Both the position numbers and the translations under genes were made by a program. Of a DNA stretch of 64,000 nucleotides, positions 61,135 through 61,664 are shown in pieces (position 1 is the stretch's first letter; each line of letters starts with the position of its first letter). This DNA comes from Escherichia coli (GTDB lineage: Bacteria > Pseudomonadota > Gammaproteobacteria > Enterobacterales > Enterobacteriaceae): NCBI RefSeq assembly GCF_003334385.1, contig NZ_QOWN01000022.1; one strand, given 5' to 3'. The notes below the pieces were generated by a model. The model did not search any database. It saw nothing but the letters and a program-made list of their open reading frames with translations, and had not been told where the DNA came from.

Positions 61135-61212
61135 CGCATCACCTCTGGCAGGCGCCAATGTTAGACTGAAATTGACGCCCGATGTTGATTATTAATAATC
61201 AGCTATGAAGTT

Positions 61213-61422
61213 TTAATTTGAATACAATGCAATTCTCGAGGACTGAAGTTTCTCGCAATTAAAATTTATCAGTTTTACTTTCTGCTCTCTGGAAACGCCT
61301 GCTTCTTTTTTACCTGAGAGCATTTTTTCGCATTCTGATTTCGTTAGTTTAGATTTTGAATATCTTGTCCAGTTAGTAGGAGTGCCACCTTCCTTTTCAA
61401 TAGTGGCGGTAATTTTATACAT
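61213..61422 (-). CDS. ydaC: Rac prophage small protein YdaC
   Basis: Start set at MYKITATIEKEGG (69 aa). Confidence 0.7.
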   Translation of the reverse strand: MYKITATIEKEGGTPTNWTRYSKSKLTKSECEKMLSGKKEAGVSREQKVKLINFNCEKLQSSRIALYSN

Positions 61423-61609
61423 GAACACCTCCATTATTATTTCCAGTGGTTCGTTTATTCCATCTTTCGAGTGCTTCTTTTTCACTTCCACCATAACCGG
61501 TTCGGGATTCGCATCCGTTACACTTCGCTCGGTAATATCCTGAAATGGCTTTCACCGTTACTGATGGACAACCACAAAATGGACATGGTTTAACATTGTC
61601 ATATCTCAT
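61415..61609 (-). CDS. ralR: restriction-alleviation protein / type I toxin RalR (Lar)
   Basis: Start set at MRYDNVKPCPFCGC (64 aa); zinc-ribbon Cys pairs. Confidence 0.8.
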   Translation of the reverse strand: MRYDNVKPCPFCGCPSVTVKAISGYYRAKCNGCESRTGYGGSEKEALERWNKRTTGNNNGGVHV

Positions 61610-61664
61610 AATTTTTCTCATAAAAATATTTCAAGTTGGCGGTGCATTACACCGCCAGGCTGAA

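Follow-up and report, generated by a model that had tools for sequence, protein, structure and literature searches.

The closest described system is RalR/RalA of the Escherichia coli K-12 Rac prophage (Guo et al., 2014, PMC4041452; RalA is b4714 in RefSeq and RF02694 in Rfam), in which the toxin RalR, reported to be a non-specific DNase that cleaves DNA in vitro, is countered by a small RNA, RalA. The divergent or trans-acting antitoxins of TisB/IstR-1, ShoB/OhsC and ZorO/OrzO are like RalA in that a short imperfect pairing of 16–21 nt, not a long cis overlap, is credited with repression in the 2014 report. RalR/RalA is unlike these systems in that the pairing lies within the toxin coding region and is Hfq-dependent, and in that the RalA gene is embedded antisense in another protein gene. 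The toxins differ too: RalR is a soluble DNase-like zinc-ribbon protein, whereas those of TisB/IstR-1, ShoB/OhsC and ZorO/OrzO are small membrane peptides. SymE/SymR shares with RalR/RalA a non-membrane, nucleic-acid-cleaving type I toxin repressed at translation by an antisense RNA (PMC4147584). However, SymE is an RNase while RalR cleaves DNA, and SymR is a genuine cis-antisense RNA that covers the symE 5′ end while the pairing of RalA involves 16 nt inside the ralR coding region. RalR also matches both models of the Lar/Ral restriction-alleviation proteins (PF14354, TIGR03655), among which our analysis would place it by sequence, but the activity reported in the 2014 study is DNase toxicity, not restriction alleviation (PMC4041452).

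All functional evidence on RalA comes from that one study, which used overexpression, and it is from the literature that we take the existence of the transcript, its 5′ end, antitoxin activity, Hfq dependence and DNase activity. According to that report (PMC4041452), DNA carrying ydaC (now rcbA) neutralises RalR even when its start codon is destroyed or a stop is placed at codon 9, and RalA provided in trans by pBAD counters RalR produced from a construct with ralR alone. When a RalA 16-mer is altered by changes silent for ydaC, neutralisation is lost; matching silent changes in ralR restore it. With RalA, RalR protein falls while ralR mRNA does not, which implies translational repression. Deletion of hfq abolishes RalA activity, and Hfq binds RalA in vitro (EMSA). 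A literature search on RalA in RIL-seq or Hfq interactome studies found nothing beyond this report and one review. In the published mechanism, RalA, a 179-nt RNA, would be made from the plus strand within rcbA/ydaC, to which it is antisense, and its nt 63–78 would pair, with the help of Hfq, with ralR codons 41–46; this pairing would lower RalR synthesis without lowering ralR mRNA. We consider this mechanism probably right, with a confidence somewhat below that in the identity of the locus because it comes from a single overexpression-based study.

The ralR-rcbA-ralA module in the Rac prophage

Our own analysis shows which three genes these are and exactly where they lie, how they overlap, and the complementarity between RalA and ralR. 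It covers a 64,000-nt stretch of an E. coli contig (the window; NZ_QOWN01000022.1 of assembly GCF_003334385.1), in which positions 61135–61664 exactly fill the space from the xisR start (61134) to the recT stop (61665). This interval is very likely what it is annotated to be, the RalR toxin/RalA sRNA antitoxin locus of the E. coli Rac prophage. The locus has already been described; the finding of the first-pass annotation is correct, and there is nothing new in its identity. On the minus strand, ttcA (58695–59630), intR (59682–60917) and xisR (60919–61134) lie on one side, and recT (from 61665) and recE, which runs off the window end, on the other. The ralR-rcbA-ralA module is thus at the left end of the Rac prophage and is essentially identical to that of E. 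coli K-12, with the same locus, gene order, 8-nt overlap, RalA coordinates and 16-nt pairing.

Aligned with MG1655 (NC_000913.3), positions 60900–61700 are identical except for one A missing in the A-run at 61622–61626, which is no difference of substance. At the same offsets (window to NC_000913.3, 1352318), RefSeq has rcbA (b1347, formerly ydaC), the ncRNA ralA (b4714) and ralR (b1348). The run has five A in the window and six in MG1655 (a T-run on the minus strand); it lies just upstream of an in-frame alternative ralR ATG (61621) and outside both RalA and the annotated ralR CDS. Strains SCU-104 and NCTC9082 match the window exactly across 60900–61700 while MG1655 is off by one A, so the window is not MG1655 itself. 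The 60900–61700 stretch is present in ~1930 of 5426 complete E. coli genomes. In four strains (2017.13.01CC, 2018-05-2CC, VE-V10-F and 2017.02.04CC) the 801-nt query matched as two pieces separated by ~780 nt in which an IS1A transposase is annotated, an IS1 insertion within the xisR-recT interval. A PADLOC search matched neither RalR nor RcbA to any defence system.

The ralR CDS (61415–61609, minus strand; ORF and RefSeq b1348) encodes a 64-aa Lar-family zinc-ribbon protein, the reported DNase toxin. Its translation scores 166 bits against the NCBIfam RalR model NF007260 (cut-off 113), matches Pfam Lar_restr_allev PF14354 at 3.3e-14 and TIGR03655 at 55.3 bits (threshold 39.6), and also matches phrog_599. 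The CxxC...CxxC of the zinc ribbon appears as CPFC and CNGC. With both family models matched and both cysteine pairs in place, RalR belongs by sequence to the Lar restriction-alleviation family (PF14354/TIGR03655).

The 8-nt overlap of ydaC with ralR on the minus strand, which the first-pass annotation had pointed out, is borne out by the sequence and by the ORF and RefSeq coordinates: the end of ralR is at 61415 and the start of rcbA at 61422, so that the two genes share 61415–61422 (ATGTATAA). The rcbA ATG sits within the final ralR codons, where the minus strand reads GGAGGTGTTCATGTATAA, and a GGAGG Shine-Dalgarno sequence lies 5 nt before it. The overlap is kept in the 10 RefSeq E. coli Rac variants fetched, bar that of O157 (L016), in which ralR is truncated. 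In Citrobacter-type relatives a gap of 11–18 nt replaces it.

Between the recT stop and the ralR start, a GC-rich hairpin (GGCGGTG/CACCGCC) occupies 61637–61657 on both strands. The minus-strand fold of 61595–61670 has −22.9 kcal/mol (z = −5.4); among Rac variants the stem is conserved while the loop and flanks vary. Lacking an adjacent U-run, the hairpin does not qualify as a canonical terminator; it may belong to a ralR 5′ UTR or form a structure at the recT 3′ end. Just upstream of it lies a promoter-like site on the minus strand, TTAACC-18-GATAAT (61706–61677).

RalA and its complementarity to ralR

The first-pass annotation expected RalA close to ralR and left it unplaced. Rfam RF02694 (RalA, ‘RalR antitoxin’) places it on the plus strand at 61238–61416, over the whole model (positions 1–179), with 225.1 bits against a gathering score of 170 (E 8.5e-55). 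The match coincides exactly with RefSeq ralA (b4714, NC_000913.3 1413556–1413734) and is base-for-base equal to MG1655, and no other credible match was found in an Rfam scan of 59000–64000. RalA, 179 nt long, is wholly inside rcbA on the opposite strand, beside ralR in a Rac-type prophage, and the last 2 nt at its 3′ end overlap the ralR stop codon. For the genome scan, then, the annotation is confirmed, and the RNA that the first reading could not place is 61238–61416 (+). That reading had also taken the lack of a visible protein-coding antitoxin as consistent with an RNA antitoxin. An RNA antitoxin is indeed what the locus has, but this step of the reasoning is weak, since ydaC/rcbA, translationally coupled to ralR, is an obvious protein candidate; it is excluded as a protein antitoxin by experiment, through the start- and stop-codon mutants, and not by sequence.

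A short stretch of complementarity to the ralR mRNA, which had been proposed as something to look for, was found over 16 nt. RalA nt 63–78 (UGCUUCUUUUUUACCU; 61300–61315, plus strand), the segment with the published mutational and compensatory evidence (PMC4041452), faces AAGUGAAAAAGAAGCA in ralR codons 41–46 (S-E-K-E-A; 61472–61487, minus strand). Fourteen positions form Watson-Crick pairs, one is G-U and one is a mismatch; 11 pairs are contiguous. The segment agrees with the description by Guo et al. (PMC4041452) and provides the base complementarity to the toxin mRNA that defines a type I antitoxin RNA. Complementarity was measured as the longest perfect complement, the global RNA duplexfold of RalA against ralR having been discarded as uninformative because it pairs the whole molecules. 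Of 1000 dinucleotide shuffles of RalA, 14 gave a perfect complement of at least 11 nt to the ralR CDS. The 11-nt complement is unusual and not extreme, being only moderately unlikely by chance, because both partners are runs of Glu/Lys codons (S-E-K-E-A in ralR, G-K-K-E-A in rcbA).

All 12 E. coli-type variants examined retain the pairing core of 10–11 nt. In one of them (L018) a single end position is altered on both sides (RalA U1>A and ralR A16>U); the remaining variant changes wear down the flanks of the pairing and are uncompensated. A second segment, CUUCCUUUUCA (61389–61399, plus strand), in the loop of the predicted RalA terminator, is complementary at 10 of 11 positions to nearly the same ralR target (ralR nt 126–136); in L009 and L011, a synonymous rcbA change (K10 AAG>AAA) makes the match a perfect 11-mer. 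This second site is not mentioned in the available part of the 2014 report (PMC4041452).

The main rival to the published mechanism, and one that does not exclude it, is that RalA acts mainly in cis: along its 179 nt it is a perfect complement of rcbA, the 3′ part of a ralR-rcbA bicistronic mRNA, and the 16-nt trans pairing would be secondary. The layout speaks for such action on the rcbA or ralR-rcbA mRNA, with RalA lying entirely opposite rcbA, reaching 2 nt into the ralR stop, and with the 8-nt gene overlap and GGAGG sequence implying co-transcription and coupled translation; rcbA is moreover a selected protein gene (see below). A review raises an interaction through overlapping 3′ ends, the ends themselves being unmapped (PMC4147584). 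Yet RalA from pBAD neutralises RalR in trans when the toxin construct holds only the ralR CDS, and changes to the 16-mer alone both abolish and restore activity (PMC4041452). We regard a mainly cis-acting RalA as possible and clearly the less probable of the two.

rcbA (ydaC) and its relatives

The rcbA/ydaC CDS (61213–61422, minus strand; ORF and RefSeq b1347) has 69 codons for amino acids in the K-12 type and 62 in other Rac variants. The 2014 study concluded that ydaC encodes no protein and did not detect a YdaC protein (PMC4041452). Contrary to that claim, sequence comparison makes it very probable that rcbA/ydaC is a genuine protein gene. RcbA matches Pfam DUF1187 (PF06688) at 1.3e-38 and also phrog_5753. 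Variation across the RalA region keeps to the rcbA reading frame: single-base differences among variant rcbA codons fall at 28 third, 10 first and 3 second positions. Such third-position periodicity by itself was rejected as proof of coding, as the plus-strand shadow frame shares the third positions. What settles the matter is the family search together with counts of synonymous and non-synonymous variant codons across frames. Over codons 1–62, the rcbA frame has 25 synonymous and 8 non-synonymous variant codons, compared with 18 and 14 in the shadow frame (which has a stop and no start) and ~1–4 and ~29–31 in the other four. In informative pairs, dN/dS by the Nei-Gojobori method is 0.03–0.17, similar to that of ralR (for example, Sd 16 and Nd 4 for the window vs. 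L007, and Sd 29 and Nd 13 for L004 vs. L104). With its profile match and the selection at the protein level, rcbA/ydaC belongs to the DUF1187 (PF06688) family.

A DUF1187 profile search of 1.84 billion representatives returned 100 clusters (50% identity) with E ≤ 1e-3; for 49 of these, E is ≤ 1e-10. Most members are 55–90 aa long, and they have the common motifs MYKITA, W-R/H-YS and F-C, and some members carry their own AGGAGG Shine-Dalgarno sequence. RefSeq annotates both rcbA and ralA; among E. coli genomes sampled at even spacing, the gene goes by ‘rcbA’ in about half and by ‘DUF1187 family protein’ in the other half. Codon 63 of rcbA (61234–61236, minus strand) is AGA in the K-12 type, including the window, and TGA in all 12 other Rac variants. 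With AGA instead of TGA, K-12-type RcbA gains a 7-residue extension, RIALYSN (69 vs. 62 aa). The mapped RalA 5′ end is 2 nt downstream of base 61236, which belongs to this codon. An AlphaFold2 model of the 62-aa DUF1187 core (61237–61422, minus strand) has a pLDDT of 81 and a beta-beta-alpha-beta topology. A Foldseek search with this model returned nothing at E ≤ 0.001, and a PDB sequence search with the DUF1187 profile gave no meaningful match. The best, non-significant Foldseek match was to phage p56 uracil-DNA-glycosylase inhibitors (E 0.14, probability 0.94, TM 0.52/0.64), a weak hint that RcbA might be a small inhibitor of a DNA-processing enzyme.

Outside E. coli, the adjacency of ralR and DUF1187 is kept in 8 loci, 7 of them distinct: one each in Citrobacter braakii and an enterobacterial MAG, and six in IMG/VR contigs, among which L099 is the same Citrobacter contig as L004. 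These Citrobacter-type loci have a ralR homologue with 67–75% amino acid identity, then 11–18 nt, then a DUF1187 homologue ~61–67% identical. They were gathered from several collections. The RalR search of genome contigs gave only 5 loci, 2 of them useful, and the phage collection gave 6 records only, the same ones by DNA as by protein. A viral-contig scan with a DUF1187 alignment as query gave 80 near-identical K-12-type loci, useless for divergence, and one with a Citrobacter protein query gave 6 useful loci. In the two loci in which Rfam RalA was tried (L004 and L005) it scored 29–35 bits only, and L004 has no promoter-like site at the position corresponding to that of RalA. In the 7 of 8 loci with an intact ralR homologue, the longest complement between the DUF1187 antisense strand and ralR is 7–8 nt, the chance level; the published RalA:ralR pairing therefore seems, from these sequences, to be confined to the E. 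coli Rac lineage.

Two loci have a prematurely stopped ralR beside an intact DUF1187 gene. In E. coli O157:H7 OK1 (L016, 661–810) ralR is truncated by W50*, with an annotated product of 49 aa, and in an IMG/VR Citrobacter-type contig (L100, 998–1024) it stops after 8 codons. Four distant DUF1187 genes (40–62% identity) have no Lar-like neighbour, and the idea that Lar and DUF1187 proteins are obligate partners was rejected on this ground. The locus L018 (PP818812.1, ‘Actinobacillus phage vB_Apl-pPE4’, 305–783) is a Rac ralR-DUF1187-recT region with 90.6% identity to E. coli, in which ralR is unannotated. The phage is attributed to Actinobacillus pleuropneumoniae, a host that looks odd for a Rac-like enterobacterial sequence.

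These comparisons bear on a second alternative, that RalR has the DUF1187 protein RcbA as its physiologically relevant partner, the RNA effect being a lineage-specific by-product, or an overexpression effect, of the shared Glu/Lys codons. It would suit the purifying pattern in the rcbA frame (25:8, vs. 18:14 in the shadow frame and ~3:30 in the others, with the low dN/dS) and the ralR-DUF1187 adjacency in loci whose ralR genes are 67–75% identical and whose complementarity is not above chance. The intact DUF1187 genes beside the stopped ralR of L016 and L100 can be counted with it as well, but they also argue for an independent function of the protein and not for an antitoxin role, and, with the distant DUF1187 members lacking an adjacent Lar-type gene, the two proteins are not obligate partners. 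In the 2014 study, ydaC with a mutant start codon or an introduced stop still neutralised RalR, and the YdaC protein was not detected (PMC4041452). We consider RcbA unlikely to be the partner that matters.

Ends and fold of RalA

In the 2014 report (PMC4041452), the RalA 5′ end comes from primer extension with RNA of the plasmid pCA24N-ralR-ralA, plasmid RNA alone being used on account of low native expression. The ydaC stop, at which the insert of this plasmid starts, is only 25 nt upstream of that 5′ end. For the 3′ end the report gives a prediction only, with a 5-bp stem, a 14-nt loop and four U; ralA was detected in the wild type by strand-specific qRT-PCR. A contemporary review notes that end mapping is missing and that the two RNAs might interact via overlapping 3′ ends (PMC4147584). 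By RNA-seq, RalA was among the RNAs detected under all conditions tested in one study (PMC12266141) and was induced 5.4-fold upon replication inhibition in another (PMC11228462).

A putative −10-like hexamer, TACAAT (61223–61228, plus strand), read from the sequence and the variant alignment, lies 9 nt upstream of the mapped 5′ end and is TATAAT in L009, L011 and L018. A consensus scan did not report this hexamer and found no good −35 ahead of the mapped end. The best plus-strand promoter-like site, TTGACG-16-AATAAT (61172–61199; 10 of 12 matches), is ~30 nt upstream of it. The xisR-rcbA spacer (61172–61216) has two opposed, overlapping promoter-like sites with a common AATAAT/ATTATT core: this one, directed into the rcbA antisense strand, and TTAAAA-17-AATAAT on the minus strand (61216–61188), directed toward xisR-intR. 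Both are present in variant L011 too.

At the other end, the fold and the Rfam structure predict a terminator at 61383–61416 (plus strand) with a 6-bp stem (UGCCAC/GUGGCG), a 14-nt loop and the tail GUAAUUUU. A consensus terminator scan of 60900–61800 reported no terminator-like site, this one falling below the scan criteria, and stem pairs are broken in L007, L008 and L014. The minimum free energy fold of the 179-nt RalA reproduces the Rfam consensus structure, but its stability does not exceed that of dinucleotide shuffles (−35.5 vs. −34.6 ± 3.6 kcal/mol, z = −0.26). Conservation was assessed in 12 Rac variants with 90.6–99.2% identity (10 E. coli genomes, the phage Rac-SA53 and the one record labelled as an Actinobacillus phage). 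Among 10 distinct sequences (13 variant sequences aligned), none of the 48 predicted pairs changed on both sides, a test of low power at a mean column identity of 96% that amounts to lack of support and not to refutation. Helices 5 and 6 lose pairs among the variants. The structure, the terminator and a wider conservation of RalA are unsupported by the tests made here; we infer the promoter, the secondary structure and the 3′ end, the last as a predicted, weak terminator.

It is very improbable that there is no discrete native RalA, only plasmid-driven or read-through antisense transcription with an Rfam family that merely records conserved rcbA coding sequence: a structure without thermodynamic or covariation support, no recognisable terminator, no good −35 with the best promoter-like site (61172–61199, 10/12) ~30 nt further upstream, and primer extension made on plasmid RNA only for low native expression (PMC4041452) would fit that account, but strand-specific qRT-PCR found ralA in the wild type (PMC4041452), later RNA-seq has it both detected (PMC12266141) and regulated (PMC11228462), and the −10-like hexamer is kept at the right distance and is nearer consensus in some variants.

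Hfq-assisted pairing of RalA with ralR thus remains our preferred reading of the RNA. A tentative joint reading, which we hold to be possible and no more, would have rcbA translated and selected within a three-part sense/antisense module, with the 16-nt pairing a recent by-product, in the Rac lineage, of shared Glu/Lys codons; the main native role of RalA could then be cis control of the rcbA or ralR-rcbA mRNA. Where the analysis goes slightly beyond the literature is that rcbA/DUF1187, opposite RalA, evolves as a protein, while the 2014 paper that defined RalA concluded otherwise. For users of RalR/RalA, the RalA 3′ end and structure are predictions, and the pairing appears not to be conserved beyond the E. 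coli Rac lineage. For those who take the pair as a type I model or make a ‘ralA’ deletion, each ralA mutation also falls in a conserved protein gene.
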